From an uncultured Candidatus Rokubacteria bacterium (lineage in GTDB: Bacteria > Methylomirabilota > Methylomirabilia > Rokubacteriales > CSP1-6), in NCBI GenBank assembly GCA_963771355.1, contig CAVYTA010000007.1, positions 748,586 through 812,585 of the forward strand: DNA of 64,000 bases, read 5' to 3'. The position numbers and the translations under genes were made by a program. The notes under the pieces are model-generated. The model made no database searches, was not told the DNA's origin, and saw nothing but the letters and a program-made list of their open reading frames with translations. Shown here piece after piece: positions 13,312 through 50,740 of this stretch (the first letter of the stretch is position 1; each line of letters begins with the position of its first letter).

Positions 13312-13324
<13 letters not shown>

Positions 13325-13401
13325 ACAAACACAAGGGGTTCGGCGCTCTCGCCGAGCCCCTTTTGTGTCTCAGTTGGCCGACTTGTCCCGAAACTTGTCC
13401 C
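13312..13401 (+). repeat. att junction 1: tRNA 3' end plus conserved arm
   Basis: GCCCCCGCAACCA-ACAAACACAAGGGG hairpin, then ACTTGTCCC twice; recurs at ~17.7, 28.0, 33.4 and 50.7 kb. Confidence 0.85.
13329..13368 (+). terminator. Terminator-like hairpin within the att arm
   Basis: AAGGGGTTCGGCG-CTCT-CGCCGAGCCCCTTTT. Confidence 0.6.
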
Positions 13402-13406
13402 TTCGC

Positions 13407-13540
13407 GGGGCGACCATGGCGCTGAGCGCCGGGTTCACGGCGCCGATCGTTGATGGCGGCCCTTGGCATGGAAGACGGAACGGACGATGCGGAGGTATGC
13501 GGCAGTGACGGATCAGACTCTCCGGGCGGCGGCGGAGCGT
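13407..13540 (+). pseudogene. Tyrosine recombinase C-terminal remnant
   Basis: Across frameshifts reads GATMALSAGFTAPIV..WKTERTMRRYAAVTDQTLRAAAE, resembling box II with the catalytic Tyr. Confidence 0.6.
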
Positions 13541-13872
13541 CAGGCACGCGCGCCCGAGCCGCCGACCCTCGGCCAAAGTCGAGACGCGAAACTCGCGGAG
13601 GACGTGCGCCCGGTCGGCGTTGGCGGCGGCGAAGAGTGTGTGGGGATCGGCCTCGGAGAGGGCCTCGCCCGAGTCGAAGCCGTGCATGAGGGCGAACGCG
13701 CCAAGCCGGAGGGTGAACCCATCGTCCAGGGCCCGCACCCGTCCGGCCCAGTCGTCGAAGCAGCGAGTTACTTCAGGCTGGTGAAGCATCCAATCGACGA
13801 CGTCTCCATGCAGCCCCGAGCGGTCAGTGTCGAAGAAGAGGTCGGCGGGCTGGGGTGTCGCCTCGTCCTCCA

Positions 13873-14187
13873 TCACCGTTTCCCCCCGCGCGTCGCGCCC
13901 GGCGCGATCTGCCCCGAACCCGTCCGATTCCCCTTGGTGTCGTAGAGGTCGATCCGCCCGCCCTTGTCGATGGTCCCGTAGCCCGTCCGGTTGCTGGACT
14001 TGTCGTAGAAATCCACGCGCTCGCCCTTTTTGTCGATGATGGCGGAGCCCGTCCTGTTGCTGGATTTGTCGAAGAGGTCAACGCGGGTCTCGGCGGGGCG
14101 CTCGTCGGCGAGGGCGGGGGCGGCGAGCGCAACGAGACCGAGCATCAGGCTCCCGGCGAGCGCGAGTCCCTGCCGTCCGTCAGTCAT
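13873..14187 (-). CDS. Small secreted protein with three internal repeats
   Basis: Signal peptide, then RVDLFDKSSNRTG / RVDFYDKSSNRTG / RIDLYDTKGNRTG. Confidence 0.7.
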   Translation of the reverse strand: MTDGRQGLALAGSLMLGLVALAAPALADERPAETRVDLFDKSSNRTGSAIIDKKGERVDFYDKSSNRTGYGTIDKGGRIDLYDTKGNRTGSGQIAPGATRGGKR

Positions 14188-14441
14188 CTTGTGCCCTCCT
14201 GAGAGCATTATAGTCCCCGGCCAGCGTGGCCCGGCAGACGCGCCGGGCGTGATCAGATGGTCTCAAGGATCCTGCGCCCGAGCTTGCGATCTCTACCGGA
14301 CGATGGAACCCTTGACACAGGGTATATGTTCGTCGTGCTGAGGCGACCTTTGGAGGCCCGCGGTTTGGCTCACAGCTTTGGCTCACAGCTTAGATGGTAT
14401 TGGGGGGCCCGACTCATTCGGGGCGGTAGCGGAGCGGCAGC

Positions 14442-15182
14442 ATGCGCATGATGGCTATCTTGCTCTCCACGCTCTTCTTGCTCGCTGTCACGCATGCCGG
14501 CCCCCCCGCCGCACAGGACCGGCATTCGGCGCAGCGCGCGCGCATGGTGGCAGAAATCGCCGCAATGGCGCGCGAGACCGGCAGCGCTACCGGACGGCCG
14601 AGTTTCAGCCAGGCGGTGATGACAGTAATGGGAAGAGTCCCGCGCCATCGGTTCGTGCCTCCGCTCCAGCAGACTTTCGCTTACGAGAACCGAGCGCTCC
14701 CCATCGCTGAAGGGCAGACGATCTCGCAACCTTTCCTTGTCGCGCTGATGACGGACCTGCTTGATCCGAAGCCAAGCGACACCGTGCTGGAAGTCGGCAC
14801 CGGCTCGGGCTATCAGGCCGCGGTCCTCGCGGAACTTGTGGCGAAGGTCTACACCATCGAGATCGTCGAGCCGCTCGGCAGGCGAGCGATGCAGCTCCTC
14901 GATGAGCTCGGCTATCGTAATGTCGAGGTGCGCATCGGCGACGGCTACAATGGCTGGCCCGAAGCGGCGCCTTTCGATTCAATCGTTGTCACAGCGGCTC
15001 CGGCGGAGATCCCGACCCCACTGATCGACCAGCTCAAGCGCGGCGGGCGAATGGTGATCCCGGGCGGAGCCTCTGACATGCAGTATCTTCTGCTCGTGGA
15101 AAAACGGCCGGATGGCACTACCACAACGAGGCGTACGCTCCCGGTGAGGTTCGTGCCCTTCACGAGAGATCGTGCGAAATAG
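14442..15182 (+). CDS. pcm: Protein-L-isoaspartate O-methyltransferase
   Basis: VPRHRFV, GQTISQP, VLEVGTGSGYQAA, APFDSIVVTAA, PVRFVP. Confidence 0.93.
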   Translation: MRMMAILLSTLFLLAVTHAGPPAAQDRHSAQRARMVAEIAAMARETGSATGRPSFSQAVMTVMGRVPRHRFVPPLQQTFAYENRALPIAEGQTISQPFLVALMTDLLDPKPSDTVLEVGTGSGYQAAVLAELVAKVYTIEIVEPLGRRAMQLLDELGYRNVEVRIGDGYNGWPEAAPFDSIVVTAAPAEIPTPLIDQLKRGGRMVIPGGASDMQYLLLVEKRPDGTTTTRRTLPVRFVPFTRDRAK

Positions 15183-15507
15183 GGCCTTAAAGCCGATGAC
15201 CTGCCCCCGGAGTTCGGTCACTCCCGTTGAGAGTCCGGCTGGCCCGACCCAGTCTAGAGTGCACCGCCAGATGTACCCACGGTGGTGAAGTGTAGCGGCT
15301 AGCTTCGAACCGTACGGGGATAGCCAGCTGAGTTGCATCTGGCAGGGGTTGGGCATCTCCCGTCCTCTGCCTGCGGGACGCGGATCCCATCGGTGGGCGG
15401 TTCGACCCGGCGCCGACCACTGCTTCCAAGGGCGTGGGCATCTCGCCGGTGGTCCTGCTACTAACGAGAATGCCCACCACGCCTTGCTCGTTCCTCGCCA
15501 TGCGAGT

Positions 15508-16999
15508 CTAATTGTGGAAGGAACTGCCGAGCGGCGTCAAGCGCCATGTGAGCCAGCCGAGATGGGTGACGGGGTCCCCTGGCGGGTACGGATCGAGGGC
15601 GCGGTTGAAGTGGCCCATCAGCTCCTGTGTGTTCGGTGTGAACCACACCAGCGCCAGCAGAATCACGAGCATGGTCCCGAGGACCGCGAGGGGCTCGGGG
15701 TTCCAGCCAAGATCGATGGCAATGGGGGCCAGGGCCGCACGCTGCGCGATATCCACATAGTAGGGCGGCGGATCGAGACCGACTCCGTTGAGGCCGCTCA
15801 TCCCTCTCAGCATGCTGAGGGCCGCGGCGAAGCTCGTCGCGCGGAAGAAGACCCAGCCCACGACGACGGCGAGGAAGGTGACCAGCCAGGCCACGGCGCC
15901 CGAGGAGGGTCGAGCGCCCCAGGTCGTGGCCGAGGGCGCGCCGCAGCTCGCGCCAGCCATGGTTCACCACAGGTAGACGCCGTGCAGCGCCCCCCAGACA
16001 ACGAAGGTCCAGCCGGCGCCGTGCCAGAGGCCGCCGAGCAGCATGGTGGCCATCAGGTTGACGTACCGGCGCGCCCGCCCTTGCGATTGCCGCCCAGCGG
16101 CATGTACAGATAGTCGCGCAGGAAGCGCGACAGCGTCATGTGCCAGCGGCGCCAGAACTCGATGATGTTGTGCGCCTTGTAGGGCGAGTCGAAGTTCAGC
16201 GGCAGGCGATGCCGAACATGCGGGACGAGGCCGAGCGCCATGTCCGAGTAGCCGGAGAAATCGAAGTAGATCTGGAGCGTGTAGGCCAGCGCGCCGACCC
16301 AGGCCTACGAGCAGCATCGGCGCGCCGCTGTGCGGCGGCCTCGAACAGCGGTCGTGCGAACGTGGCCAAGCGTGTCGGCGATCACCGCCTTCTTGAACAG
16401 GCCGAAGACGAAGATCGTGAGGCCGGCCGCGAATTGTCCGCGTTCGAGCCGGTACGTCGCCGGGTCGCTCGAACTGCGGCATCATCTCGCGGTGATGCAG
16501 GATCGGGCCCGCGATCAGGTGCGGGAAGAAGGTGACGAAGAGCCCGTAGTGGACGAAGCTGTACTCGCGCGCCTCGCCGCGATAGCTCGACCAGGAAGGC
16601 GATCTGCGTGAAGGTGAAGAACGAGATGCCCGAGGGGCAGGAGAGATCGACGCGGGCGCCCATTCCTTGCCCAGCAGGAGCCCCAGGTTCTCGAGCAGGA
16701 AGTTCCAGTACTTGTAGTAGCCGAGCAGGAGCAGGTTGCCGGCGATGGCGAGGATCAGCAGGAACGTCGCGGCTGTGCCCGCGCCGGGCCGGCCGCGTGC
16801 GCGATAACCGGCCGCCGTAGTTGAACAGATGGAAAGAGCAGCAGGGGCACGTAGACCGGATTCCACCAGCCGTAGAAGAAGAGCGAGGCCATCGTCAGCC
16901 AGGGGGCGGCGAGACGAGGTGGAATCGGCCGAGCGAGAAGAAGCCGGGGAACGCGATCGGCAGGAACAGGAAGACGAACACGAACGAATTGAAGAGCAT
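15508..16999 (-). pseudogene. MBOAT O-acyltransferase (AlgI/DltB-like), frameshifted and 3'-truncated
   Basis: [55 protein letters not shown] and LGGLWHGA in shifting frames. Confidence 0.85.
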
Positions 17000-17277
17000 A
17001 TTCAGCCTTGTATGACGGGATCCTACTCAGGTGTTGCGTATGAGCGATCAGCCGACGTCGCGCTCGGAGAGCAGGTTGGTTTCATCGAGCAGTAAGGCGA
17101 GCTTGCGCCCCGCCGGGTCGGTGGCGTTGCCGGAGAAGCGGAGGGACAGTGTCCTCTCGCCTTCTTCCCGCCCGGAAGACGATCCGCTCGCGGTGATGCG
17201 CAGTCAGGGGGACTCGCCATGGTTGTCGCGCCGGCGGTGACACGCGGGACTTTGTTGACCGGAGCCGTGCCGACAGG

Positions 17278-17685
17278 AGGATAGGTAGCATGAACGCCTC
17301 CGGCGGCGGTGGCCCCGTCTGTGGGCGCCGTCCCCGTGACATAAGGTGCCAGACCCGAACGCTGGCCGCCCCAGGAGCCGACGGCACAGCGCACATTAGC
17401 GGCCTGCTCGCGGGTCGAACGAGCCGACCCGAGTGAGCGGCATGCTATGCCAGACACACCGCCGCCGTCAACCGGCCACGGACCGGCCGGAGCCGCGGTG
17501 ATGGCGCCTCGTGGGGCGTCCGCCGCGCCCCCGAGCAGATCGGATCAGGACTTAGTGGCATGCGGTTTTCGAGGTGGCGGTGCGCGTAAAGCTGCTGAGA
17601 CATTTGGTGAAAACGTGGCCGTGACGAAACACGGGATTCAAATTCGAATCTCGAACTTGAACTCGAGGGACCTGTCGCCTGCAAG
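17278..17685 (-). mobile_element. Internally deleted, non-autonomous IS91/ISCR-like element
   Basis: 17278-17551 matches the transposase-downstream end of the elements at 25876 and 48464, up to the tnp stop; ~17594-17685 matches their upstream end; no transposase. Confidence 0.8.
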
Positions 17686-17755
17686 TGGTTGCTGGCCCCC
17701 GAAACTAAAAGAACACAAGGGGTTAGCGATTACGTCGCTAGCCCCTTCGTGTTTT
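17686..17755 (+). repeat. att junction 2 (degenerate palindromic core plus arm hairpin)
   Basis: TGGTTGCTGG-CC-CCCGAAACTA, then ACACAAGGGG...CCCCTTCGTGT. Confidence 0.7.
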
Positions 17756-17829
17756 CTGCTTCCATCTTGCTGTCCGGGAGGGGTTCATAACCCAAAGGTC
17801 GGTCCACCTGAGCCTAGGAAAATACAAGG

Positions 17830-18080: not shown

Positions 18081-18095
18081 AGTCGCGAAAGGCGT

Positions 18096-21000
18096 CAGGA
18101 TGCCGGCAGGTCTTGAAAGCCTTGTAGTGCTCTTTCCGCCTCATTCGTCCAGAACGGCATTTCCAGGGTTCGGTCAGCCTCGCCGCCTTGACGAGATGCT
18201 CCGGGCCTGCTCGCTTATTCTCATACGGCCGTATCCCTCGCCGATGCCGAGATGGCAGTGGGCTCCCAGGGGAGCCATCCCGAGTTCTGATGCGAGCTCC
18301 ATGCCTTTGGGTAATGTCCTTCGGCCGTCTCGGGATCCTGGCGTGCGAATGGATCTCCCCGAAAAGCCAGTGGGTCCATGCGACAGAGCCCGACTGGTTG
18401 TAATCCATGGCGGTCTGCAGTGCGAGATGAGCGACGCTGGTCGCCCGTTCGAGCTGGCCGGCGTGCAAATAAGCGTCGCTCAAGTGCACGACCCGCATGG
18501 TTTGATCGACCATTAGGTCCATGCCGCCGGCGGCGTCGACGGCCTCTTCAGGATCGCGATCGCGTCGGCTGCGCGCTTACTTAGCGTCTAGGCTCGACCG
18601 AGATAACCCGCGACTGTGACTCGCGCCATGTGAAGAACTCCCCTCTCGGACAACTGAAAGCGCGTTGCAGAGTCGAGATCGCCATGGCGAGATCGCCTTT
18701 GCGAAGATGCACGATTCCGAGTGCCATGTAGGCATAGATCCGGCTGACGAGGTCGTCGACTCGCTTCCGCGATGCAGACCCCTTCGTTCCCACGCATAGT
18801 GGCGGGTCCGAACTCGCCAAGCTCTGCAAGTGACCACGAAAGCCATGTGCGAGCCGATACGGATGGCAAATTGGCCATTCCCAGGAAATTCGTGCGATCG
18901 GCATCGGTCGCGTCGACGACCCAGTTCAGCAGCTCGATCGCCTGCGGTAATCGCCCCTCGCATGTCGCGCGCGGCCTGCGAACGAGTTTGCCAGTACCTC
19001 GGCCGGCGTCTCGCCAACCGGCTGCGCCGTAACCGAAGCCTGTTCGGCGGCGCCGATGGCGCGATCCTGTTGGCCGATCGACCAGAAGTAGAGGGCCTTG
19101 AATGTAAAGACGCGCGCCAGGCGAGCCTGGTCGTTCAGTGTGGTGGCGATCGCTTCCGCTTCGTGCAGCAACTCGAAACTGCGCTGAAACTCGCCAAGCG
19201 GGACAGCGAAGTCCGCAAACTGAAACGCAGATCGATCGCCTGCTGCATGACCGCGCCGCTTTGTGGCAGACGGTCGATCGCCGCCAGCGCCTCCGTAAAC
19301 CTCGCGACGGCTTCGCGATGGGCGGACTTCGCCGCCGCCTTCGCGCCGGCCTGATAACAATATGAAACGGCTTTGTCCCACATCTCGCCGCGCAGGGCGT
19401 GATGCGACAGGCGTTCGATATGCTCCGAGGCGGTCCCAGTAGAGTTCTCGGTGGCCTCCAGGATTCGCGCATGCAAGGCCCGCCGGCGTTCGTGCAGCAG
19501 GCTTCCATACGCGACCTCGTGGGTCAACGCATGCTTGAACGTGTACTCCGGCTCGGGGAAAAGCGCCGTCTGGTACAGGAACTCGGCGGATTGAAGATGA
19601 GTCAGTCCCTGCCGCAGTGCCTCGTCAGTCAGGCCGGCGATCGCGTGCAGCAGCTGAAACGGAACGCTCGTGCCAATGACCGTTGCGGCCTGAAGCAACT
19701 GCTTGTGCGCGGGCGAAAGGCGATCGATACGCGCGGCGATGACCGGCTGTACGGTCGAGGGCACCTGAATGGAGGTGAGCGGCCCGGTGAGGCGATAGGC
19801 GCCGGGCACGCCGACGAGCGCTCCCAATTCCGCGAACGCACTGACGCTCTCTTCGAGAAGAACGGGTTACCCCCGGTCCGCTCCGCCAGCAGTTGCTTCA
19901 GCGGCTGAAGCGCCGCGTCATCTCCCAGAAGGGCATCGAGAAGGTGTCGGCGCTGTCGGGCTCGAGTGGATCGATCCGTAGCCGGGTATAGTACGGCCTG
20001 GAGTCCCAGCTCATGCATACTCGGGGCGATAGGTCACGAGCAGCAGCATGCGGGCCGGCGGGAGGTCTCGACGAAGCCCTTGAGGACCGCTTGAGTTTCG
20101 AATCGATACGTGAAGGTCCTCGAACACGACCAGTAGCGGCTGAACCTCGCTTTCCCGCAGGAGCAGCCGTTTCACGGCGTCAAGAGTTCTCTCCCGGCGT
20201 TATTGCGGGTCGAGCTTCTCCCACTCCGTATCGCTGAACGGCGTGTCAAGCAACGCAAGGAGCGCCGCGACGGAAGAATTCAGCGATTCGTCCAGGGCGA
20301 AGAGCTTGTCGTGACCTTCTCCCGAATGGCGCGATGATCGTCGCGTTCCTGGATCTCGAAGTAGGTCTTGAGCAGGTCGATCACGGGAAGGTACGCGGTC
20401 GCTTTCCCGTAGGAATGGATCCGCTTTCGAGATGAGCCAGGATTCGCGCGACAGGGAACGCGCAAATTCGTAAAACACGCGCGATTTTCCGACGCCGGGC
20501 TCGCCGACTAGGGCGACGATCTGGCCATGGCCTGCCGCGGCCTGCTGCCACGCCATGCGCAGCTGGTCGAGCTCGGCATTGCGTCCCACGAATCGGGTCA
20601 GGCCCCGGCTCGCCGCAGCTTGCAGCCGCGTGCGCGCCGCCTGTGCGCCGATGAGCTCGTAGGCTTCGACGGCCTCGCTCAGGCCCTTTACGTGGATTTG
20701 CCGAGCGCTTGACCTGGACATACCCCTCGACCAGGCGCAGCGTAGAGCTGCTGATGAGAGTCGATCCCGGCATCGCCGTCTGTTCCATCCGCGCCGCGAG
20801 ATGGGTGCTCTGCCCCACAACCGTATAGTCCATCCGCAGGTCGTTGCCGATCGTGCAGACCACGACTTCGCCAGAATCCAATCCCACCCTGATCTGGATC
20901 GGCACGCCGTGTGTGCGTGAATCTCTGCGCGTAGCGCTTCACCGCCTCCTGCATCCTCAGCGCGGCGTAGCACGCGCGAATGCCGTGGTCCTCGTGGGCG

Positions 21001-21438
21001 AGGGGAGCTCCGAAAAGCGCCATGATGCCGTCGCCCAACACCTGGTTGACCGTGCCCTCATAGCGATGGACGGATTCCATCATCCGCTCCAGGACAGGGT
21101 TGAGAATATTACGCGCTTCCTCCGGGTCCCGGTCGGCGATGAAGTTCCATCGACCCCTTGATATCGGCGAACAGCACGGTAATCTGCTTGCGCTCGCCCT
21201 CCAGGGCGGCTTTGGACGTGAAAATCGTCTCGGTGAGCCGCTGCCGGGTGTAGCGTTCCGATACGGGCCGCGTGCCGGGCAATTCCTGCGTCAACGGCCC
21301 ACCGCAGACGTGGCAGGTGTCGTTGGCGGCAACATTGACCGTTCTGCAGGCCGGACAGCGGATCTCGAGGCGCGTGCCACATTCCCCGCAGAGTTTTCCG
21401 CCAGGTGGGTTTTCGTGCCGACAGTGCTGCGACCGCAT
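18096..21438 (-). pseudogene. Double zinc ribbon + adenylate/guanylate cyclase + AAA ATPase + TPR protein, frameshifted
   Basis: CxxC pairs, GERKQITVLFADIKGS, GDGIMALFGAP, GEPGVGKSR, ERTGGNPFF, YTFKHALTHEVAY; 3' end approximate. Confidence 0.85.
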
Positions 21439-21759
21439 GCTGCTCACTCTCTGATGAACTCCGTCGTCGTCGGGCGAGTCTCCCTCGTGTGCAGCGTGGC
21501 GTTGACGGCGTCCAACCAGCCGCGGAGCTCCTTCACCGACTTGCGGGAGGAAGGCACGTGAGTGATCAGGTCACTCTAACTCTCCCATGTGCTCAACTAG
21601 GATCGCCTGAACGAGACGTTTGCCCCGATCGGGCAACTCCCGTCCCGAGGAGCTCCCGCCCCAAGGGCCTGCTGTATGGGACGGCAGCTAGACTACTTGC
21701 CTTGAACGAACACGTCAATCCGATTGTCATGTCAGCGGTAGGCGCGGCGGTGACCGATG

Positions 21760-23442
21760 TCAGCCCGCCGCGGTCCGGGCGAGCTCCCTTCGCAGCATCG
21801 CTCTCACCGAGTCGGACTGCGCGCGCAGACTGCGGACCGCCCGGCGCAAGGACGGCGACGCCGCGGTGATCAACTCGCTCCAGGTGTCCTCCAGTACGGC
21901 CGAGAGCTTCTCGAGGTCCACGCGGGTGGTGCGGACGAGACAGGACATCACCTCTCCGAGGTGACCGTAGAGCATGGCGTGCGTCAAGCGCAGGCCGCCG
22001 CTCTCGTATGACGGCATGTGCCGCCAGGTCTCCGGCGCCAGGCGTAGGTCGTGCGCCCTGGCAACGGGTCGAATCCGGGCGGGATCGAGGATCGTGGCGT
22101 CGAGGTCCCGCAGAACGATCCGCGAGGGCATCCCGTCCCGCAGGACGATGTAGACGTTCTGGAAGATGCGGCTCGAGCGCCATGCCCCAGCGGGTATAGA
22201 AGTCGACTGGCCCGCGCATGAGAACGCGACAATAGGCGCGGAAGAACTCGCACGCGAGGCCGGGGCGGCCAAGGTCCGGCAGCCCGCGCGCCCTGCGCGG
22301 CCCGACCCACAGATTCAACGCCGGGATCACGACGTCCCCGGCGCGCTGCGGGACGGGGTGAGCGGACGATCGCCGCGCAGACCGTGTGCCCATGCGAGGC
22401 GCACCGTGGGCCATCGAGGCCACGTCGTACTGGAAATCGAGGGAGTCCTCTCCGCTGGCCGCAAGCAACAGCCGGGCAAGGGCGGACACGGTTGGCGCGT
22501 TGGGCGGTCGAAGAGGATAGAGGAGTCGGACCTCGCTGGTCAGGGTCGCGTCGATCGGAAGCTTCACGTCGAACCCCGTCGCAACGATCCGACACGTGCG
22601 CTGCGACGCCAGGGGAACGGCCTCCTCAAGCTCGCGTCGAGGAGCACGATCTCTCGCTGCCGGAGCAACTGGGTCACGATGGGTGAGAGCTCGAGCTGCC
22701 ACGGATGCACCGGGATCACGACGCTCGCGCCACGCGGCCAGGCCAGGTCGGCCCAGTTTCGGAAGCACGCGCGTTGATCATCGAAATCGATGGAGTCGAA
22801 GCGACCGTGCCGGACCGCGATCAAAGGTATATCGATCGTCTCCCGCGACAGGTTCGAGCATCGAACTACCTGCTTGAGGGAGGGCCCGATGCGCAGCCCG
22901 GGGAACGGATGGTAGTGGTGGCCGAGGTAGACAGGCTCGATCGCCTTCGCCCCCTTGGCGAGGCGTCGACCGAGCAAGCGGTTCAGCACGAGGTTGGCGA
23001 AGCTATTGTCGAAGTTGGCGACCAGCCGATCGAAGTGTCTGGCGAGCTCTGACCTTCGCAGTGACCGACGAAGCGCGCGCAGAAACGCCCGCGGCGTGCG
23101 AATGATGCAGCGCCTCCCGCTGTGGAGAGTCCACGGTGGGCCCATTAGCTCGAGCCGCCGAAAGGGAAGTGGCCCGCTCACGGGCGCCCGGAGCATCGGC
23201 GCCCGACCGACATCGAGTGACCATCGCCCGGCGACGTCTTTCCTGAGCGTCGACGACGGGATGTAGCCTTCCCGATGGATCGATTGGAGCAGCCGGGAGA
23301 CCGCGAGCAGCAAGGCGTCGTGGTGGACTTGGGCGAAGGCGGCGCGGCTGATCCGCTGGGCACGGGCCCATCGCCTGACCTCGGCGAGGGTCAAGCCCGG
23401 AGCGGGGCGTGGCTTAGGTCGATTCGAAGACGTTGCGGCCAA
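21760..23442 (-). CDS. IucA/IucC-family (NIS synthetase-like) amide ligase, frameshifted
   Basis: IPVHPWQ, PLASQRT, VKLPIDATLTSEVRLL and ALEPHL.QNVYIVLRDGMPSRIVLRDLD across frames. Confidence 0.75.
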
Positions 23443-36889: not shown

Positions 36890-36904
36890 CGAGCGACGCT
36901 GCGG

Positions 36905-40766: not shown

Positions 40767-40770
40767 CAGG

Positions 40771-40895
40771 AGGATAGGCAACATCAACGCCCTCCGGCGG
40801 CGGGCACCCGGGGGTCCGCACGGCGTGGGTCCCGTCCCCGTGACATAACCTGCCAGACCCGGACGCTGGCCGCCCCAGGAGCCGACGGCACCAGC
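40771..40895 (-). repeat. oriIS-end repeat R4
   Basis: AGGATAGGCAACATCAACGCC...CCAGGAGCCGACGGCACCAGC. Confidence 0.9.
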
Positions 40896-40905
40896 GGGGC
40901 CCTCG

Positions 40906-41172: not shown

Positions 41173-41624
41173 ATGTTCTGTTCCTCCTGCGGCCGATGAT
41201 CGCCCAGATTCGATAGCCGCACAAGGGCGAGATCCAGCCGGCTGCCAGTTTGGTTCCAAGCAAGAGTGCATCCCCGCCTCGTTTTCCAGCAATCCTGGGA
41301 CTTCACCTGCCAGTCTGCTACCTGCTACCAAACTGCTACCCAAAGGCCCCCGTCAGCCCTCCCGCAGGGTTACGCCCCGGCCGCGGATTCCAGACCCTCC
41401 TCTCGCGGGAATGCTTCGTCGCGGCGGCTCGTCGAAGGATAGTCCCGAACGCGCCGGCCGGTTGACGGCGGCGATGTGTCCGGCATAGCATGTCCCTCAC
41501 TCGGCGGCTCGCTCGACGTGTGAAAAGGCCGTTGGAGTCCAAGATGATCCGCCTCGACACGCGCGCACGGGCGTCCGCGCTCGTACTACTCCTGTGTTCA
41601 TGCGTCACACCGAAGGAGACTTCT

Positions 41625-42299
41625 ATGGCAGCACAGACCGCCAATCTCTATCTCGAGGATCTCGACGACGCAAGCAAAACGAGGCAGCTCCCGAATAGCG
41701 ATCTCGCTGCGCTTCGCACCGTCGCAGACTGGATCAAGAGTTTCGTGACCAAGCCTCACAAGGATCTCGGCCGCGATGGGCCCGTGTGCCCCTTCGTGCC
41801 TGAAGCCATGCAGCGGAAGACTCTTTGGCTCGCTTCCGAACACATCGCTGGCCGCAGTGTGGCAGATGTGGTCCAGCTCGTAAACGGATACAAGACGCAG
41901 CTCCTGCAACAACCCTTTCATGGGGAGGGCGTTAATTACAACTCAATCGTCGTTGTTTTCACCGATCTGTCGGCGGATCGTACAAAAGGTCTCTTCGACG
42001 ACGTCCTGAAGCAACTTGCAGTTCCATCATATGTGGAGGATGGGCTGGTGATGGGAGGGTTCTACGAGAGCAACGAGGCAACTGCGATATACAATCGAAG
42101 CTTTCGACCATTCACGCCGCCCGTGCCGTTTCTGCTCATGAGGCATGCGGTCATCAGCGACTGGAAGTTCTTCTTGGACAACGACGACTGGCTCAACCGT
42201 TGGGCGCATCGCTATAGAGAGTCCGGAGTCCGGGCTCTCGCTGAGGAACTACGCCGCTTGCCATGGCGCGCGGGGGGCGACGAATCCCACAACAAATGA
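41625..42299 (+). CDS. DUF6875-like hypothetical protein
   Basis: AAGGAG RBS; PHKDLGRDGPVCPFVP and FRPFTPPVPFLLMRH. Confidence 0.6.
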   Translation: MAAQTANLYLEDLDDASKTRQLPNSDLAALRTVADWIKSFVTKPHKDLGRDGPVCPFVPEAMQRKTLWLASEHIAGRSVADVVQLVNGYKTQLLQQPFHGEGVNYNSIVVVFTDLSADRTKGLFDDVLKQLAVPSYVEDGLVMGGFYESNEATAIYNRSFRPFTPPVPFLLMRHAVISDWKFFLDNDDWLNRWAHRYRESGVRALAEELRRLPWRAGGDESHNK

Positions 42300-42569
42300 G
42301 CTCGGTACAACGAGTGTTCGGCGTGGTGGTCGGGCGCATTCGAGGCCACGTCGTCGAGAGTTTGTGGGCACGCTGGCCGCCGACGAGGTTCGGAAGCGGT
42401 ACCTCGATCGGTACGTTGGCCACGTTTTTCCTGCTGGTGCACGGAACCCGATCAGGTACCTGAACCTTCGCAAGAAGCCCGCTAAGCGCACGCTGCGCGC
42501 TAGAGCGGATCGCTAGCTCGCATGCATCCGCCCCAGCCGCCCGAGGTCGCGCTGGGGGCCCTCTTCAAG

Positions 42570-42627
42570 AGGATAGGCAACATCAACGCCCCCCGGCGGC
42601 GGGCACCCCACGCGTGGTCCCCGTCCC
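42570..42627 (-). repeat. oriIS-end repeat R3 (58 bp, shortened)
   Basis: AGGATAGGCAACATCAACGCC...GTGGTCCCCGTCCC. Confidence 0.88.
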
Positions 42628-45119
42628 ACCGGCGCCACGAAGCGCCTGGCGCGCTGTCGCCAGGAACTCCGGTTCGGTGGTGCTCGATTGCAGGAGGCGG
42701 CGGTAGATCGCTTCCGCAGCGAGGCGGTCGCCGCGCGCGACCAGGCACTGCACCGCGCCCACCAGTGCGCGGGGCTCGGCCGGTGAGCCCGGGGTCAGGT
42801 ACGCCGAGGTCAAATACATGTCGAGCGCGTCTTCATGTTGACCCGCGCCGCGGAGTATCTCTGCGACGCGGTACGCCGCCTCGCCGCTCGTCTCCCGGTC
42901 TTGGGTTCGCGCGAGACCGTTCGCAGGTAGGAGCTTTCGGTAAACGGCCACGGCCTCGTTCAACGCGCGCAGAGCGGTCAGGGAACTGCCGGCGCCGAGC
43001 AGCGCCAGCCGCGCCCATCTCGAGCCTTCTGCGACATATGCTGCCGTCATGTACCACTCGACCGCGTCCGCGTGCAGTCCCTCGGCGTTCAAGGTTCGAC
43101 CGAGGCGGTACGCAGCCTCCGCCGCAACCTCGCCATCGGTCTGGGCGACCACGCCGTAGCAGGAGGGGTGGCATCCGGTCCACTTCCCCGAAGTCCTCGA
43201 GAAGCCGAGCGTGCGAGAGCAGGCTCTGCGTTGATCGCTCGATGCGAGGATAGTCCCGGAGCACCCGGTCGTAGGCGGCGAGCGCCTCCCGGCGGCGGCC
43301 GCCCGTCTCGTCCATCTGGGCGAGCAGGAGCAACGCGCGCGGTGCGGCGTCGCCGCCAGCAGCCGCCGCCTGCTCGAGCTGGGCACGAGCCTGAACCGTC
43401 GCGCCCGTTCGGAACAGGGCCTCGGCGAACTCCACCTGCTCGCTCCGACCCATCGGCGTACCGGGGTAACGCGCGACCAGCTTTTCATAGGCCCGGCGTG
43501 CGATCGGCCATTGTCCGGTGGAAGCCGACGCTGCGGCCACCCGGGCCAGAAGCACGGGAGCCGCTGGATAGGAGGGAAAGTCATCGACGAGCCGGCCAGC
43601 CAGCGCGTCCACGCTCACGTCGGACCAGCCGCGGTTCGCTGCTGCGAGCAGCACGAAGCCGTGAAGCAGGTACGGGGTGCGCTCGCGTTCTTGCCCCAGC
43701 AAGCGGGTGGTGAACGACTCGAGAGGCTCGGTACCACTCGCCCGGACGCCTCCACCAGCGCCGTGGCCCCACGACGCATTACGCGGCGGTTCGTCCAGAC
43801 CCCCTTCGGCTCCCGGCACCGCGAGCGCCGCGCTCAGTCTCGCACTCGCGTCGATGACCAGAGGCTCGCTCGACTGAACCAGCACGTCGAGCTCGCGCAC
43901 CGCTTCATCCTCGTGGTCTCGGCGGAGCGCGAGAACGGATCGGCTCAATCTCGCGATCCCAGCGTGCAGCGTCGATGGATACTGCGCGATGAGCCGGTGG
44001 AACAGGGCGTGAGCCGCCACCGTGTCGCCCCCCTGGCTTGCCACCTCCGCGGCGAGCACGCACGCGAGGGGAGCGCGAGCATCGGCCGGAAACTTGTCGG
44101 CGACCCCGGTCCACGATCGTCGGGCGCGGGCGCGATCACCAAGCCGAAACTCTGCCCAACCCAGTGCCATGGCGGCGCCAGGGGTTTCCGGTGCCTTTTC
44201 GTGCCTCGACAGAAATTCCCGGTAGCGAGCGGCGGCCTGGCCGTACGAACGCATTCCATACGCGGCGTCGGCGGCGACGAGGAGAGCCGCTGACCGCACA
44301 GCCTCCGGCACACCGCCGCGGAGCAACATCTCGGCCCCGCTTTGAGCCTGGCGGAAGTTGCCTGTCGCGAGGTCCGCCTGGGCCTGGCTCAGTAATGTCT
44401 TCCTTGCCGCCAGAGCACCGGCCGCAGGGGAGGTAACGCCGTCTCCTCCTGTCGCCGTCGCGCCGTCATTACCGCCGCCGGGCGCACCGGCACCCGCACC
44501 ACCGCCTCCGGCACTCCCCGGCGCCGGGCCCGAGCTACCGGCGGCGCCGCTACTAGCGCCAGAGCCACCGCCACTGCCGGACCCGCCCGCACTACCCGAG
44601 CCCCCGCCCGCGCCGGAGCCACCGCCACTGCCGGCGCTGCTGCCCCCCGCACCACTGCCGCCACCCGAGGCACCGCCGCCGCCCGAGCCACCGCCGCCGC
44701 CCGAGCCACCGCCGCCGCCCGAGCCACCGCCGCCGCCCGAGCCGCCACCGCCGCCCGCCACCGCCACCGCCCGAACCACCGCCACCGCCCGAGCCACCGC
44801 CACCGCCCGAGCCACCGCCACCGCCCGAGCCACCGCCACCGCCCGAGCCACCGCCACCGCCCGAGCCACCGCCACCGCCCGAGCCGCCTCCCCCGCCTCC
44901 GCCACCCCCGCCGCCGCCTCCGCCACCCCCGCCGCCGCCTCCGCCACCCCCGCCGCCTTTGGCGATAAGGACGTGTCCGTGCGTGTCGCTGGTATCGCTC
45001 GGCGCCAGTCTGACCGTCGAATCGTCCTTCGGGGCAGCGGTGACGCGGGGAGCCGCTATCGGGATGGTCAAGCCGATCGCGAAGAGCGCCGCAAGGATGG
45101 CGCGGTAGATGGAGACCAT
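42628..45119 (-). CDS. Secreted TPR protein with long Gly/Ser linker, frameshifted, 3' end runs into R3
   Basis: Signal peptide MVSIYRAILAALFAIG, (GGGGGS)n, then TPR-like helices (AYEKLVARYP, AYDRVLRDYP). Confidence 0.7.
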
Positions 45120-45395
45120 CGGGGCAACTGGCTGCACTCGTTGTGCCCGTGACCTCGGCGATCTGCGCTGCGCAAACTCGGGCGGCCGGGCCAGGGAACC
45201 CTGGCGGGCTGCGGCATGCCCCCGGGCGAGAGTGATCACCCCGCGTTCCTTCCTCGACGCGTTCTGACTTCGACTTATACTGCTTCGCGCCGGCCGCACC
45301 GTCAAGGCCCCCCTTTGGCCTCGGGGGCAGCGACACCTGAGCCCACGGGCTGAAAAGCTAGAGGAACCCGAGCGCGCCCAGCGCCACCCTCCTTG

Positions 45396-45509
45396 AGGAT
45401 AGGCAACATCAACGCCCTCCGGCGGCGGGCACCCTACGCGTGGCCCCCGTCCCCGTGACCTAACCGCCCAGACTCAGACGCCAGCCGCCCCAGGAGCCGC
45501 TGTCACAGC
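45396..45509 (-). repeat. oriIS-end repeat R2
   Basis: 114 bp; 3 substitutions versus 48464-48577 by eye. Confidence 0.93.
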
Positions 45510-46074
45510 GACCTTCTTGCCGCCCGAGAGTGGAGGCCGTCAAAAGCCGCCAGCGTTGCCGGGCTACCGGCCACATTTCGTTGTCGACGGCACGACTGAC
45601 TATCTCGGCGTCATCTTCACCAAAGCGGGTGCGGCGCCAGAATTCGGGAAAGCCGTCCGCGCGACAGCTCAGTGCGTATACGACGGCGTCGACTACTCAC
45701 GCCGGTTGCCCGGGACCCGGTTCAACGTCGTCGAGGGTACCCGCGTCGTCGCGCACGGCGTTGTTCTCCGATTGTTCTCCCACGATAGCGAGCGCGCACC
45801 CCTGCCGACGACGCCAGACCTTTTCCGCGAGGAGCTTCGACTTTACGTGACTCTTGCTCGGCAGCTTGGCCGAAATCGAAGAGGTCCACGGTCAACCGGC
45901 GAGTGTCGTTCTCGAGCGCTGGATCTCGCGCGAAGAATCGGCGCGCCGCTTCGATCGGGCTGTGCGGCGCGGCGGAATATCTGCAACCGTTCCTGTGCTG
46001 CCACTCCCTCAGGCAAGCAGCAAAGGAATCACGCTCAACGCCTCGTCTCGTACCTGGTCAGGACGGAATCACGC

Positions 46075-46638
46075 TCAACGCCTCGTCTCGTACCTGGTCA
46101 GGACCACGCCGCCGGGAAACGTCCGCGTCTCCACCAGGTTCAGGTTCACCCAGCTATCCAGCGCGGTGAAGAACGGTGTGCCGCCGCCCACCAGCACCGG
46201 ATGGGTCACGATCTCGTACTCGTCGATCAGCCCGGCCCGCATGGCCGCCCCAGCGAGCGCTGCGCCACCAACCCTCATCGGCTCGCCGTCCTCGGCCTTG
46301 AGCCGGGTGATCTCCGCGACCGCGTCGCCGGTGACCAGGCGAGTGTTCCAGTCGACCTTGTCGACCGTCGAGGAGAACACCACCTTCGGCGTATCCCGCC
46401 AGTTCCGCGCAAACTCGATCTGCGCCGGGGTGGCACCCGGCTGCTGGTCGCCGGTCGGCCAGTAGGAACTCATGGTTTCCCACAGCTTGCGCCCGTACAA
46501 CAACAGGCCGATCGCTAGCTCCTGGTCGAGCCACCACTGAAACAGCTCGTCGCTCGGCCCGCTCCAGCCGAGGTCGTCGCCGGGCGCGGCGACGTAGCCG
46601 TCCAGGGTCAGGTTCATGCCGTAGATCAGTTTCCGCAT
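46075..46638 (-). CDS. Dihydrofolate reductase (RibD C-terminal) family protein
   Basis: MNLTLDGY, LLYGRKLWE, PKVVFSST, GLIDEY, PVLVGGGTPFF. Confidence 0.9.
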   Translation of the reverse strand: MRKLIYGMNLTLDGYVAAPGDDLGWSGPSDELFQWWLDQELAIGLLLYGRKLWETMSSYWPTGDQQPGATPAQIEFARNWRDTPKVVFSSTVDKVDWNTRLVTGDAVAEITRLKAEDGEPMRVGGAALAGAAMRAGLIDEYEIVTHPVLVGGGTPFFTALDSWVNLNLVETRTFPGGVVLTRYETRR

Positions 46639-46964
46639 GGCGCCATGCCTTTCTGTCAGTCGGTTTCGGGAGTCTAGACCGGCTCGGCGCAGACAACTGA
46701 TCAATGCGCGATCTGCTTTACAACTTTCACGGGCTCGAATGCCGCTTCACCCATCCCGATGGCACCGTCGTCGATGTCGCTCTGACCACGCTTCGCCGTG
46801 GTGAACTTGTTGTCGTCGATTTCGCGGCTGCGGTGCCGATCGATGCAGGATTCCTCGCTGAGTTCTGTAGAACACGCCCCGGAGGCAAGCTGCCCCGTCT
46901 CGACTTCGCGGGCGCGTTACGACAGCTCGACGCTCTGGGAGCCCAAGGGGAGCTCGCCGTCCAG

Positions 46965-47077
46965 AGGATAGGCAACATCAACGCCCTCTGGCGGCGGGCA
47001 CCCCACGCGTGGCCCCCGTCCCGTGACCTAACCGCCCAGACTCGGACGCCAGCCGCCCCAGGAGCCGCTGTCACAGC
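46965..47077 (-). repeat. oriIS-end repeat R1
   Basis: Identical to 48464-48577 except one C in a homopolymer. Confidence 0.95.
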
Positions 47078-47458
47078 GTCCTCGCCGACCGCTCGCAGTT
47101 CTTCAAGGATCTCAGCGCCCCGTTCTACGGCGCCAACCGGCCGGGGGCCAAGGTCTCACAAGGGCTGCGCGACTCCTTCTGGCTCCAGGGGATGCAGGCC
47201 GGGTTCAAGGGCGTCATCGATTGCATCAAGGCCTTCTCGGAGACGAACTTCACCGAGGACCTCAAGAAGATCGACGTGCCGACCCTGATCCTGCACGGCG
47301 ACGACGACCAGATCGTGCCAATCGGCGCCTCGGCCCTCCTTTCCGCCAAGCTGGTCAAGGCGAACATGCTGAAGGTCTACCCGGGCCTGCCCCACGGTAT
47401 GTGCTCGACCCACAAGGACCAGGTCAACGCGGATCTTCTGGCCTTCCTGAAGGGGTAG
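47078..47458 (+). pseudogene. Non-heme chloroperoxidase (alpha/beta hydrolase), 3' half only
   Basis: [19 protein letters not shown]...[17 protein letters not shown]...HGMCST; starts mid-gene at the R1 boundary. Confidence 0.88.
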
Positions 47459-47553: not shown

Positions 47554-48441
47554 TCAGAAGCGAAATGTCAGTCCCGTCGCGATGGTCTGCACGTCCTTGG
47601 CGTTGGTACCGTACTCGAGAAACAGGTCCCAGTGCCGGAACAACGTGACGGACCCGCCGATCGTGGCGTTCAGGGGATGAGTCGGCGCCTGCCGGGCCTC
47701 GAAGCTGACCTTCCCGACGTTCGGCACGGTCACGGTCGCGCTCGCCGTGCTCTCGGTACCCCAGTACATCCCGCCGAGCCAGAGGCGGACCGGGGCGTAC
47801 AGGACCTTGCCGTTCCACCCGACCCGGATGGTCCCCACGAGCGCCTTGAAGCGATCGTCGAACCCGATATCGGTCTGCGTGTAGTTCACGTCGCCAAGAA
47901 CGAAGAACTGGCGGTACCCTCCCGCCAGGGTGACCCCGGCCCCTCCCACGAAGCCCTCCAGCTGACTCTTGCCCGACACATCGAAGGTCAGCGAGCCGGG
48001 CAGCGGGCCCGGCCGCGGCACCGTCACGGTGCCCCGCGTGGTGGTGTTGTTGATCACGGCGCCGACGAGGGCATAGACGTCGAGGAAGGGCAGCAGCCAC
48101 GCATCGAACCGCAGCGCCGCCACGCTGGTGTGGCTGCGGGACCCGAGGCTCACGAACCGGCTCACGTCACGAAGGGGTGCGCCATTGAGGCCCAGCCGCA
48201 CATCGGAGACGTCGACATCCCGCTCGATGTAGTAGTAGACGGCGGAAAGCCCGAGCGGCAAGGGGAGCTCGTACCCGCGCTTCACGGCCTCGCCCGCGAA
48301 GAACGGGAGCGCGTGCGGCCATTGCCCTTCGTCCGTGGCTGCGATGGCGCCGGCGGCCGAGCGAGGCGGGTCCGCCGCCGCGGTGGGAGTTACGACGACC
48401 AGCACGAGAAGGAGCACGATCGGGACGGGCGAGACGCGCAT
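47554..48441 (-). CDS. Putative outer-membrane beta-barrel protein
   Basis: Signal peptide, amphipathic beta strands, C-terminal Phe (LTFRF); starts 22 bp after the element end. Confidence 0.65.
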   Translation of the reverse strand: MRVSPVPIVLLLVLVVVTPTAAADPPRSAAGAIAATDEGQWPHALPFFAGEAVKRGYELPLPLGLSAVYYYIERDVDVSDVRLGLNGAPLRDVSRFVSLGSRSHTSVAALRFDAWLLPFLDVYALVGAVINNTTTRGTVTVPRPGPLPGSLTFDVSGKSQLEGFVGGAGVTLAGGYRQFFVLGDVNYTQTDIGFDDRFKALVGTIRVGWNGKVLYAPVRLWLGGMYWGTESTASATVTVPNVGKVSFEARQAPTHPLNATIGGSVTLFRHWDLFLEYGTNAKDVQTIATGLTFRF

Positions 48442-48628
48442 GCCGGGGTCATCATTTCACGAGAGGATAGGCAACATCAACGCCCTCTGGCGGCGGGCAC
48501 CCCACGCGTGGCCCCCGTCCCCGTGACCTAACCGCCCAGACTCGGACGCCAGCCGCCCCAGGAGCCGCTGTCACAGCGCACATTAGCGGCCTCCTTGCCG
48601 ATCGAGCGAGCCGACCCGGGTGAGCGAC

Positions 48629-48658
48629 ATGCTAGGCCAGACAGACGGCCGCCGTCAA
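48629..48658 (-). promoter_or_regulatory. Outward-facing promoter in the element, directed toward oriIS
   Basis: Minus strand TTGACG, 18 nt, TAGCAT; conserved at 26040-26069, 17442-17471 and inverted at 41462-41491. Confidence 0.65.
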
Positions 48659-48744
48659 TCGACCGGTGGACCGGCCGAATCAGCACGAATGCCACCTCGC
48701 GGCGCCAGCACGACGGCGTCCGCCGCGCCCCCGAGCCGATCCGA

Positions 48745-50224
48745 TCAGGACGCGGCGGCGTCGGACTCGGGAGGGGCGGGGCCGGGACTCTGCCCCGAGT
48801 GGCCGAGGGCGAGGTGCGCGAGGATCTTCCGGATGACCGCGGGATCGTGCAGCGTGGCGATCAGGCGTAGGCGGCCTACACAATGGGCACACGCCAGCAC
48901 GTCGATGCCGAACGCCCGGTGCATCAGGGCCGCCCAGCTCCAGGCGCGCGGACTGGCGGTCTTCACCCCCGTGCCGTCCGGACCTGCGGCCAGCGGCGCC
49001 GTCGAGGCCGTGGGCTCGGGCACGGGCCGTCCATAGACGACCACTCGCGCGCGCCAGCGTGCGCGCGAGGCCAACACGCCATGGCAAATCAGCAAGTTGG
49101 TTTCGGGCCGCGGCGTCATCGCCGCCAACCGCTCCAGGAACTCCAGCGGCTCGAAGACCAACTCTCGTGTCCCGTCGTGCCACGCCCTCTTGAGCTCCAG
49201 CGCGACGCGGCCGTCGCCCCGCAGCCGCAGGCGCTCCTGCGCGAAGGGCGGACGCAAGACGTATCGACACAAACGCTCCACCCCCGCCCGATCGTTCGCC
49301 GGCACCCACACGTTGGCGTGCAGGTCGAAGCCCTCCAGGTGCGCCTGCCGCGGCCCGCGCGACGGCACGGCCGCCGTGTCGCGCGCCTCGCCGAGCCGCC
49401 GCACCCGCGCCCCCGCGCGCGAGCCCAGCGCCACCCGCCCCTGAACCGAGGCCCCGACGATCCCCGCCATTATGGGGGACTCGTCCGCGAGGGGATCTGC
49501 CGGCCCCGTCGCGTCGTCGCCGGGCTCCAGGCCCCGGCGCACGAGCAGCCGTTGCACCCGCTGGCGGATCGTCGCCAGCGCTGCCGCGACCTCGGCGTCG
49601 CTCGGTGCCGGCGCCGGCTGAAACGCCAGCGCGCCCCCGGGCGCTTCGGTGAACACTCCGTCCAGCACGAGGGTGTGAAAGTGCAGGTTCACGTTCAACC
49701 CGCTGCCTGCGCGCTGCATCACGGTGACGCTGCCGGTGCGTCCACCCGGCACGCCGCACTCCCGGGCGCCGCGCGCGTACACGTCGAGCAGCACGCGTGT
49801 GTACACCCGCAGCACCGCGCGGCTCAGTCCGTGATTCCACGCCATCTGGTACCGGAGCCGATACGGCACCGTCAGGACCCACTGCCGCACCGGCACCCAC
49901 GGCAACACCGCGTCCACCAGATGCGCGGCGCGCTCCGTCATCCGCCGGCCACCGCAACTGGGGACACCACCCCCGCCCTTTACACGAAAACGGCACCAAA
50001 TGCTCGCGCGCGCAGCCCTCGCACCGAAACCGCGCCACGCCGTGTTCCAACACGCCGCACGTCAGAAACTCCCGGAACTCGCGCTCGACGAACTGCGGCA
50101 GGCCCGCGCCGTCGCCGGTCTCCGCCACCGCGCGCAGGAAGACCTCCAGGTGCTCGGCGATGACCTGGTGGAGCACGGTGTGCTCGGCGTCGCGGGGCCG
50201 GTAGACCGCTCGCTGGAGGGCCAT
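48745..50224 (-). CDS. IS91/ISCR-family HUH transposase (one frameshift near 49960)
   Basis: Zn-binding Cys cluster, [11 protein letters not shown] (HUH), [11 protein letters not shown] (single-Tyr ISCR type), C-terminal CxxC. Confidence 0.92.
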
Positions 50225-50649
50225 GGCCCCCAGGTGGGGTGACGCCGCCGACCGGGACAATGCTGAGAGAGTGATACACCGATCAGGGTGGGGATGGCGG
50301 CGGCCGAACCGCTGCCGGCGGTGCGTCTACGTTCCGGAACGGTCGGGAGGGCAGCCTCGCGCGCGCGGCGATCGCGTGGTGTGACCCGGGGAGGGCGGTG
50401 GTCTGTATGTCCATGGCGTCTGGCCGGAGCTGGATGGTCCTCCCCGCCTCAGAGCACATCGAACTCTGGGGTAGCCGAGGCAGTGCGCAGGGAACGTCGA
50501 GCGGCACATGTTCGGTGGCGTGCTGTTGTCGAGCTGGCGTGGACCGCACAGGTTCTGAGACATTTGGTGAACACGTGGTCGTGACTGAAACACGACGGAT
50601 TTAGATCGGGATCTCGAAGCAGAAGCTCAGCGACCTGTTCGCCGGCAAG

Positions 50650-50740
50650 TGGTTGCGGGCCCCGCAACCGACAAACACAAGGGGTCGGCGCTTCCGCCGA
50701 GCCCCATGTGTCGGCTAGCCGACTTGTCCCGAAACTTGTC
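50650..50740 (+). repeat. att junction 5
   Basis: TGGTTGCGGG-C-CCCGCAACCG, then ACAAACACAAGGGG hairpin and ACTTGTC twice. Confidence 0.85.

Follow-up and report, generated by a model that had tools for sequence, protein, structure and literature searches.

An ISCR-like element recurrently joined to the likely attachment arm of a tRNA-fMet serine recombinase, in a stack of decayed islands of a Candidatus Rokubacteria genome

How does one tRNA gene come to be followed by a row of copies of its own 3′ end, several of them next to remains of the same HUH transposable element? This question is raised by a 64,000-nucleotide (nt) stretch, here called the window (G000:C7:748586-812585), of an uncultured Candidatus Rokubacteria bacterium whose genome, G000, comprises 5.5 Mb in 8 contigs at 70% GC. 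Positions without a contig number are those of the window, and other genomes and loci are cited by our own handles. An earlier note, made from the letters of the window, had proposed a composite element that couples site-specific integration at the tRNA to cargo capture by an IS91-like transposase. We found that an HUH element is indeed tied to a tRNA-fMet recombination site whose integrase is missing, and that both the type of site and the capture signal differ from those proposed. Decayed islands are piled up at tRNA-fMet. The reading that we favor, with a probability of roughly 60%, is that an ISCR-like element is docked on the attachment (att) arm of a large serine recombinase (LSR), was delivered by an LSR that acted in trans or has since been lost, and collected cargo at its origin ends, in a tRNA hotspot that tyrosine integrases also use.

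The features on which the docking rests are as follows.

26153-27636, minus strand: ISCR-like HUH transposase copy 2, frameshifted, start predicted; Pfam Zn_Tnp_IS91 and Y2_Tnp; 91% nucleotide identity to copy 3
48745-50224, minus strand: ISCR-like HUH transposase copy 3, one frameshift, start predicted; Pfam Zn_Tnp_IS91 and Y2_Tnp
17555-17757, plus strand: left (P) arm, followed by a palindrome (17686-17707) and an arm 2 that are both degenerate
27912-27990, plus strand: left (P) arm and exact palindrome 27969-27990, a putative attR-like joint of a tRNA-fMet LSR
50481-50670, plus strand: left (P) arm and palindrome one C short; the minus strand codes for an 18-residue LSR-type tail

Each palindrome had been described as directly preceded by an IS91-like element. 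The long copies 2 and 3, both frameshifted, do stand before two of them; before 17686 there is only an origin end with a 3′ untranslated region (UTR) and no transposase. The palindrome itself is exact at 27969, carries three mismatches at 17686 and lacks one C at 50650, where the extra C is present in other runs (loose contig ends at 50663). In a chance test, it gave two matches at three mismatches or fewer against 0.01 expected. In copy 3, the base at 49960 is missing in all four runs compared, so its frameshift may be an assembly error. Within the clade, G130 has an intact, open transposase frame.

The transposases read on the minus strand, toward the origin end. Their nearest named protein is ISVsa3 (39%), which we take to be ISCR2. 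For a 398-aa partial frame, the best NCBIfam model is that of ISCR clade Ia (NF052416; 238 of 925 bits, below cut-off), and the IS91 model (NF033538) scores 35 of 125 bits, far under its cut-off. The protein has the Zn domain and catalytic tyrosine of ISCR and IS91-like transposases, with the motifs H87-F-H89 and RYVLRP; a single catalytic tyrosine marks the ISCR branch. As in these elements, a sharp origin (oriIS) end lies downstream of the gene.

An attR of a serine integrase consists of a P arm, a 2-bp core and the 3′ side of the target. The window's joints have this layout, and P and P′ form an imperfect inverted repeat, as in LSR islands. Since the LSR arm left after the tRNA in relatives and the window's left arm form an imperfect inverted repeat, the palindrome (left arm-CC-CCCGCAACCA) is best read as an attR-like joint of a tRNA-fMet-targeting LSR, in place of the attP-like site suggested before. 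In relatives G003, G075 and G019, LSRs run into the tRNA-fMet end, and in G114, which belongs to the same genus, a 568-aa protein with Resolvase, Recombinase and Zn-ribbon domains ends in QVVAGAGFEPATFGL inside a tRNA-fMet 3′ fragment. By eye, an LSR-type arm is present at at least 6 of 28 tRNA loci having downstream sequence (one being G148); most others have a hairpin, often with short repeats. On its GG strand, the left arm reads as a short tail after VVAGARNH, and the frame upstream of it in L185 resembles an LSR C terminus. This tail stops at the same codon in 41 of 47 distinct left-arm copies, and G082 has a GG-centered joined form. The palindrome occurs in 9 of 182 relatives of the order (including G148, which is unpublished), not once in the control, and in 29 stretches of the genome collection, from several phyla; the left arm is also found in metagenome-assembled genomes of Ca. 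Rokubacteria and Methylomirabilota (L170, L178, L180, L190 and L193). None of our conclusions depends solely on G148, G149 or G008.

IS91 cut sites lie on the strand opposite to the transposase-sense one. The CTTG reported directly after the CCA on the minus strand, and taken to be an IS91-type cleavage site, is present; it is the His-Leu codon pair of the LSR tail. As an HUH cut site it was rejected, as it lies on the transposase-sense strand and 12 nt within shared sequence. Two further candidates were rejected: the left arm as a plus-strand integrase C terminus, as the LSR frame sits on the other strand, and the hairpin arm as the right arm of the LSR attP, as the LSR arm is a different sequence. 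Elsewhere in G000, tRNA-Glu(ttc) has a weak remnant of an LSR next to it (C7:699054-699686); 3.7 kb further on, C7:702605-702790 is a palindromic joint with no insertion sequence.

The joint was followed into other genomes and metagenomes with a 21-nt motif just upstream of the transposase, which gave at least 123 matches at at least 121 metagenome loci; the element-bearing runs are soil and rhizosphere metagenomes, and the loci stem from related samples, so that counts over them are not independent. Among the 123 matches listed, to which all counts of matches, joints and flanks in this text refer, 68 extend to the att core, where 40 different right flanks follow, 29 depart before it (18 distinct) and 26 stop at a contig end. 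Transposase 5′ regions thus run into the att arm in 68 of 97 informative close-clade matches, and of the 66 core matches whose left flank is long enough, 59 show the transposase 5′ end. Among 20 genome loci with the transposase 5′ end in view, the core was found at 4 of 8 with the clade motif and at none of 11 without it (one being G148), and one had too little flank. The check named in the earlier note, whether homologous transposases sit next to the palindrome, therefore came out positive for the close clade and negative for the 11 more distant homologues.

The core dinucleotide CC is kept in all 59 joints with enough right flank. Their right flanks resemble a tRNA 3′ end in 32 cases, a reversed tRNA T arm in 22, an LSR arm in 2 and something else in 3, and this variety points to repeated recombination at the core. 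The reversed T-arm-like half-sites look too tRNA-like for chance. Such joints (e.g., L046, L058 and L098, and C6:11199 and C3:7390 in G000) consist of left arm-CC and a reversed half-site with inner bases unlike those of a tRNA. A strict IS91 element would show a terminator (terIS) palindrome at a fixed tetranucleotide cut. Here, 29 listed copies end at 16 points and 68 enter the att core; with no fixed terIS, the element is not a strict IS91. The palindrome as terIS, the alternative offered earlier, is a weak reading, as the shared sequence runs 12 nt beyond CAAG/CTTG and the right flanks are integrase half-sites, not random targets.

Two relatives show both sides of an island. In G114, a tRNA fragment with its LSR on one side, and the 5′ part of the element with left arm, palindrome and the window's arm family on the other, enclose 23.6 kb, and G113 has the same bracket, with an LSR stub, around about 20.6 kb. 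A unit of the CR2-sul2 type is an ISCR between two att sites of one integrase; attL-to-attR brackets were seen in these two relatives and not in the window. From the 68 of 97 listed close-clade matches against 0 of 11 distant copies, together with these brackets, the link between HUH element and att arm appears clade-specific and recurrent. No tRNA-Met was found near clade junctions in 44 metagenome and 40 genome loci, which are short and carry little weight here, and no origin-to-palindrome joint was found among seven joints listed in the contigs of four runs, which are unable to prove absence.

The second line of evidence concerns the origin ends, of which the window has eight, all in the same orientation.

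17277-17551, plus strand: remnant of an ISCR-like element with an internal deletion, lacking the transposase; its origin end and 3′ UTR are joined to the left arm
25875-26152, plus strand: origin end and 3′ UTR of copy 2; left-flank sequence unbroken in G114, G064 and G148
35482-35616, plus strand: short origin end, breaking at CACAGC; 126-bp tandem duplication on its left
40770-40893, plus strand: short origin end, cutting an HxlR gene on its left
42569-45509, plus strand: origin-flanked cassette of a 59-bp origin stub, a TPR-repeat gene and a short origin end (45395-45510)
46964-47078, plus strand: short origin end joined in mid-gene to an alpha/beta-hydrolase fragment
48463-48744, plus strand: 3′ UTR and complete origin end of copy 3, with the fixed break at 48576-48578
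48658-48629, minus strand: predicted outward sigma70-like promoter in the full origin end of copy 3

Cargo capture driven by the HUH element had been proposed before; we find its signal at the origin ends, in an array of five short ends (35482-47078) that the earlier note lacked. This array precedes a full copy, and similar rows exist in G113 and G114. Among 41 distinct origin copies with enough flank, 14 are full, one of them as judged by eye; in 23, one of them doubtful, the break comes no more than 3 nt after CACAG, and 4 end otherwise. This places 23 of 27 truncated copies at one fixed break, which lies some 112 nt within the origin end. In a wider set including two full-like rows, C follows in 24 of 27 and G comes next in 13 of 27. 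Other runs have loose contig ends at 48462-3, the origin end, and at 48576-8, the break. Two junctions were tested. In both, the break meets the middle of a gene, the two sharing 1 to 4 nt, and the missing half of that gene does not lie on the left; on this ground we rejected the idea that the short origin ends are plain insertions of miniature inverted-repeat transposable elements. For a third junction, no homologue of the left flank was found in 158 relatives. The origin-end hairpin folds no better than shuffled sequence in all three copies compared. ISCR and IS91-like elements have a target tetranucleotide of the CTTG/GTTC type next to oriIS. Beside the origin ends here, position -5 is C in 61% of 31 and position -2 is G in every one (C-N-N-G), and CTTG stands at one of the eight window ends.

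The TPR cassette is present in G000, G113 and G114, and both its left and its right flank differ in each of them; window positions 42626-45509 are 97.9% identical in G113 and 86-99% in pieces in G114. Within its gene, 44500-44960 is a long tract of 9/18-bp repeats, coding on the minus strand for Gly/Ser-rich low-complexity sequence, and its length differs in G114. The duplication left of 35482 (35242-35494) lies in a carrier-protein fragment, and the last 13 bases of its first copy resemble the origin end. Positions 40853-41461, the end of a short origin with a PepSY-like gene, are 98.7% identical to C6:1494052-1494660, an origin-bearing island behind tRNA-Gly.

What cuts at the break? Xer-dependent (dif-mimic) elements carry an 11-6-11 site resembling the host dif. 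A weak dif-like 28-mer (48566-48593) spans it, matching 15 of 22 positions in two full copies, a score that 3 of 1,500 random windows reached in a post hoc test. The break falls at the border of arm and spacer. One arm matches at 6-9 of 11 positions and the other at 4-6 of 11, and the partners score 2.5 against a background of 2.6, that is, no better. The host has one dif candidate (C6:993563), conserved with a variable spacer and matched in 70 of 159 family genomes, singly in 68. Host XerCD acting at the dif-like site is a lead for the cutter, beside a second HUH cut.

The third component is the tRNA hotspot itself.

13248-13324, plus strand: tRNA-Met(cat) of initiator type, target of the stack and the sole tRNA-Met there; C1:A72 mismatch and three anticodon-stem G-C pairs
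13325-13401, plus strand: arm 1, a hairpin with ACTTGTCCC direct repeats, putatively of tyrosine-integrase type; repeats resemble flanks of the C5:997690 remnant
13392-13522, plus strand: tyrosine-integrase stub, C-terminal part, matching residues 318-360 of the C6 integrase at 58-89% (tblastn)
13280-15192, plus strand: tRNA 3′ half, arm, stub and cargo; 99% copy at C5:997822-999733
17781-17801, plus strand: fragment of tRNA positions 30-50, probably an eroded long att core
27991-28196, plus strand: arm 3 and a second tyrosine-integrase stub (from 28084)
32544-32564, plus strand: 21-nt tRNA 3′ end with different arms on both sides, probably the joint of a third integrase system
33428-33520, plus strand: eroded tRNA 3′ end and arm 4, without palindrome
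50671-50748, plus strand: arm 5

We take the C1:A72 mismatch and the three anticodon-stem G-C pairs to be initiator features. Five copies of the tRNA 3′ end with an arm had been listed; those at 13312, 27978, 33431 and 50659 hold, and that at about 17696 is degenerate. Likewise, the ACTTGTCCC repeats are intact at 13381, 28047 and 33500, altered at 50720 and missing at 17696. Arm-to-arm identity ranges from 86 of 88 to 40 of 54 aligned bases (74-98%), so the copies are not identical. The arm folds better than shuffled sequence (z = -3.1, for the same arm at 27990). The hairpin arm resembles the sequence 3′ of this tRNA in relatives and goes with tyrosine-integrase remnants: its ACTTG(T/C)CCC repeats also border the remnant at C5:997690 and a 44-nt tRNA half on C5. 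As stated before, the window has no intact integrase, and we found no integrase family match within it; G000 has 11 tyrosine-integrase matches outside. At C6:2777-3930 there is an open tyrosine integrase frame whose C terminus is 84-93% like the stubs, followed by a tRNA-Glu fragment. The C5:997822-999733 copy, which carries methyltransferase cargo, lies within an island behind tRNA-Glu(ctc) in an attP-like layout. A left arm similar to that of the 32544 joint occurs in G064, G092 and G114, and a similar right arm follows the tRNA in G109. From the hairpin-arm repeats and stubs, the C5 copy and the third type of joint at 32544, the locus would be a hotspot for at least three integrase systems.

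Core genes lie left of tRNA-Met, and the backbone returns at about 55714 with the leucyl-tRNA synthetase (LeuRS) gene, as in G114, so that the variable region spans about 42 kb, beyond the span of the earlier note. In G114, the same tRNA and LeuRS gene also enclose a long variable region; G114:C9:723796-724305 is a 95% partial copy of the LeuRS 3′ end, which suggests another element integrated at that gene. Among the cargo, the MBOAT (15960-17000) and IucA/IucC (21593-23442) genes have many frameshifts, through decay or read errors. Adenylate cyclase/AAA/TPR genes at 19368-21251 and 38184-40092 are 72% alike, and a third relative lies beside a C6 origin end.

How might these components have been assembled? 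We propose that an ISCR-like element became fused, on its terminator side, to the likely attP left arm of a tRNA-fMet LSR. At the 2-bp CC core, circles with this P arm would recombine with the tRNA end or a similar site, and the crossover would leave left arm-CC-CCCGCAACCA beside the sequence that formerly followed the tRNA, here the tyrosine-integrase arm. Tyrosine-integrase islands would then re-insert at the tRNA and shift older joints downstream, and the LSR end of each island would be deleted later. Cargo adjoining an origin end may be excised in such a way that the fixed break becomes linked to its far end; renewed insertion at an origin would then build up arrays in one direction that the outward promoter could transcribe. 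Observed directly are the fusion recurring across genomes, the relatives' LSRs reading into the tRNA end, the sharp origin end, the fixed break and the cassette at three places.

Several findings weigh against docking on an LSR arm. No intact LSR and no Resolvase or Recombinase match was found in G000, only the weak remnant at tRNA-Glu, and although three attR-like joints lie in the window, it has neither an attL nor an LSR, and no LSR arm follows the tRNA. An LSR gene whose 3′ end overlaps attL, as in DsiB, occurs in relatives and in neither window nor genome; with no LSR in either, the window's units are at most non-autonomous relics. The codon bias of the LSR-type tail is mild (24 synonymous and 44 non-synonymous variant codons). 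Some copies lack the link: 29 of the 97 informative listed copies of the clade stop before the att arm, four of eight clade-motif genome loci are without it, and the left arm occurs without a transposase at C7:702605 and on C6 of G000 and, with none within 1.5 kb, at 7 of 10 palindrome loci outside G000 and G148. The 22 listed reverse-T-arm flanks have no explanation in the model, a kept CC by itself cannot separate an LSR crossover from an HUH cut, and the metagenome loci are not independent. Finally, neither activity nor a circle was observed, and the evidence is that of sequence throughout.

A different arrangement of the same parts is possible, if somewhat doubtful: a two-enzyme platform like an integron, in which cassettes would be cut between the origin end and the ~112-nt site by HUH enzyme or XerCD and stacked before the outward promoter, with a captured serine-integrase att arm replacing terIS and delivering the array to tRNA-fMet. 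We consider it unlikely that one-ended rolling-circle transposition copied a pre-formed attR, in the order origin, transposase, left arm, palindrome and arm, and pasted it within the stack, the LSR joint having formed once or a few times. This would suit the same arm family following all three joints (at 27978 also with the same stub as the tRNA-proximal arm), a window without attL and, in G113, a module of left arm, palindrome and arm that is inverted and lies 3 kb from the tRNA; failure of IS91 termination is put at 1-14% of events in the cited portion of PMC13181058. Yet 40 distinct flanks start right after the core among the listed matches, one variant with an internal deletion has many of these flanks, which would require the core to recombine repeatedly, a search of the genome near the element did not recover the right half of the target into which origin 25875 cut, and the unit of arm, stub and cargo is mobile by itself, as its 99% copy on C5 indicates.

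It is improbable that there is no functional coupling, with an ISCR that landed once beside an attR and hitchhiked by descent, its short origin ends being deletion debris in an island graveyard. Stacked serine islands lacking an integrase are known (PMC3146451, in part), both transposases are frameshifted, none of the 11 distant copies is att-linked and the left arm is often without the element; but random decay would not be expected to yield one break in 23 of 27 truncated origin ends or one cassette at three places, each with its own left and right flank, and the link is kept over at least three genera-level groups of the family (G114, G093 and G083) and 40 listed flanks. Slightly less probable again is a palindrome that is the element's own terIS hairpin, or an HUH enzyme guided to tRNA-fMet-like ends by base-pairing of the left arm, with no integrase. 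Homology among copies does stop at the palindrome, which folds as a hairpin (z = -2.3), one copy (G093) has both arms changed together, and the IS91 terIS palindrome adjoins its cut site, though IS91 cut sites are on the bottom strand (PMC13181058, both from the portion cited) and the CTTG here is on the transposase-sense strand. Moreover, 24 of the 59 listed joints have an integrase half-site instead of the palindrome, and the same palindrome stands at LSR tails of distant phyla, where no HUH gene was seen at the joint, none having been sought. An assembly that concatenated strain variants of the tRNA locus, the refutation the earlier note allowed for, is very improbable. Many single-base frameshifts do suggest an error-prone long-read assembly; against concatenation, the cargo blocks are unrelated, the transposase copies are 91% and the arms 74-98% alike, G114, G113, G064 and G092 have similar stacks, and the G114 locus is bounded in the same way.

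Docking of an ISCR-like element on an att arm has a precedent. In GIsul2/CR2-sul2, as far as the cited part of PMC9376610 describes it, ISCR2 is bounded on its terminator side by the att site (attLR, 119 bp upstream of rcr2), and the unit is moved by the integrase of the island. The terminator-side boundary of the window's element likewise coincides with an att site, whereas here the target is tRNA-fMet and not guaA, the partner is an LSR with a 2-bp core, the integrase is absent from the genome, and the att arm lies 90-420 nt upstream of the transposase and is known from sequence alone. The ssrA islands of Dehalococcoides, in the portion of PMC3146451 used, are tandem and have a CcrB-like serine integrase, DsiB; as the 3′ end of this integrase overlaps attL, integration alters its tail. 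Many of the islands are integrase-less and thought to move by accretion. The tandem order behind a small RNA gene, the overlap of integrase and att site (here in relatives) and the integrase-less members are shared with our islands, unlike the tRNA-fMet target, the HUH element at the attR end and the interleaved tyrosine-integrase joints. The six-gene module of the DsiB islands was not noticed here, and no search was aimed at it.

On the origin side, ISCR1 is described with genes next to the origin end and an outward promoter within it (PMC13393415, in part), and ISCR28 with a gene between two sequential origin ends, a "sandwich," and adjoining recombination (attC) sites (via PMC12772301, in part). 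The window likewise has origin-side genes, a predicted outward promoter and a gene between sequential origin ends; it differs in up to five short origin ends in a row with one fixed break position, in cargo other than resistance genes, and in a docking site that is an LSR arm and not an integron segment. With IS91, IS801 and IS1294, so far as the cited portion of PMC13181058 covers them, the element shares a Zn-domain HUH transposase, unlike ends and an origin downstream of the gene, and it differs in that no single terIS cut site was found and the origin flanks are only C-N-N-G. In the open-access literature, we found neither an ISCR fused to the att arm of a serine integrase nor an origin cassette of fixed length. 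The docking logic is thus known from GIsul2/CR2-sul2, and the serine-integrase partner and fixed-end cassettes are apparently new. The parts are known separately and all decayed here; recurrent LSR docking and a base-precise origin break are specific and testable.

The G114 LSR, with its putative attP and attB at the universal tRNA-fMet end, is a possible integration tool. How ISCR or CR elements move and pick up genes at the origin side is still debated (PMC9376610, in the part cited), and the fixed break near +112 offers a base-precise candidate for the missing capture step. The locus adds an environmental case in which the terminator side of an ISCR is replaced by the recombination site of an enzyme class different from that of GIsul2, which suggests that att docking is a general habit of ISCR elements.

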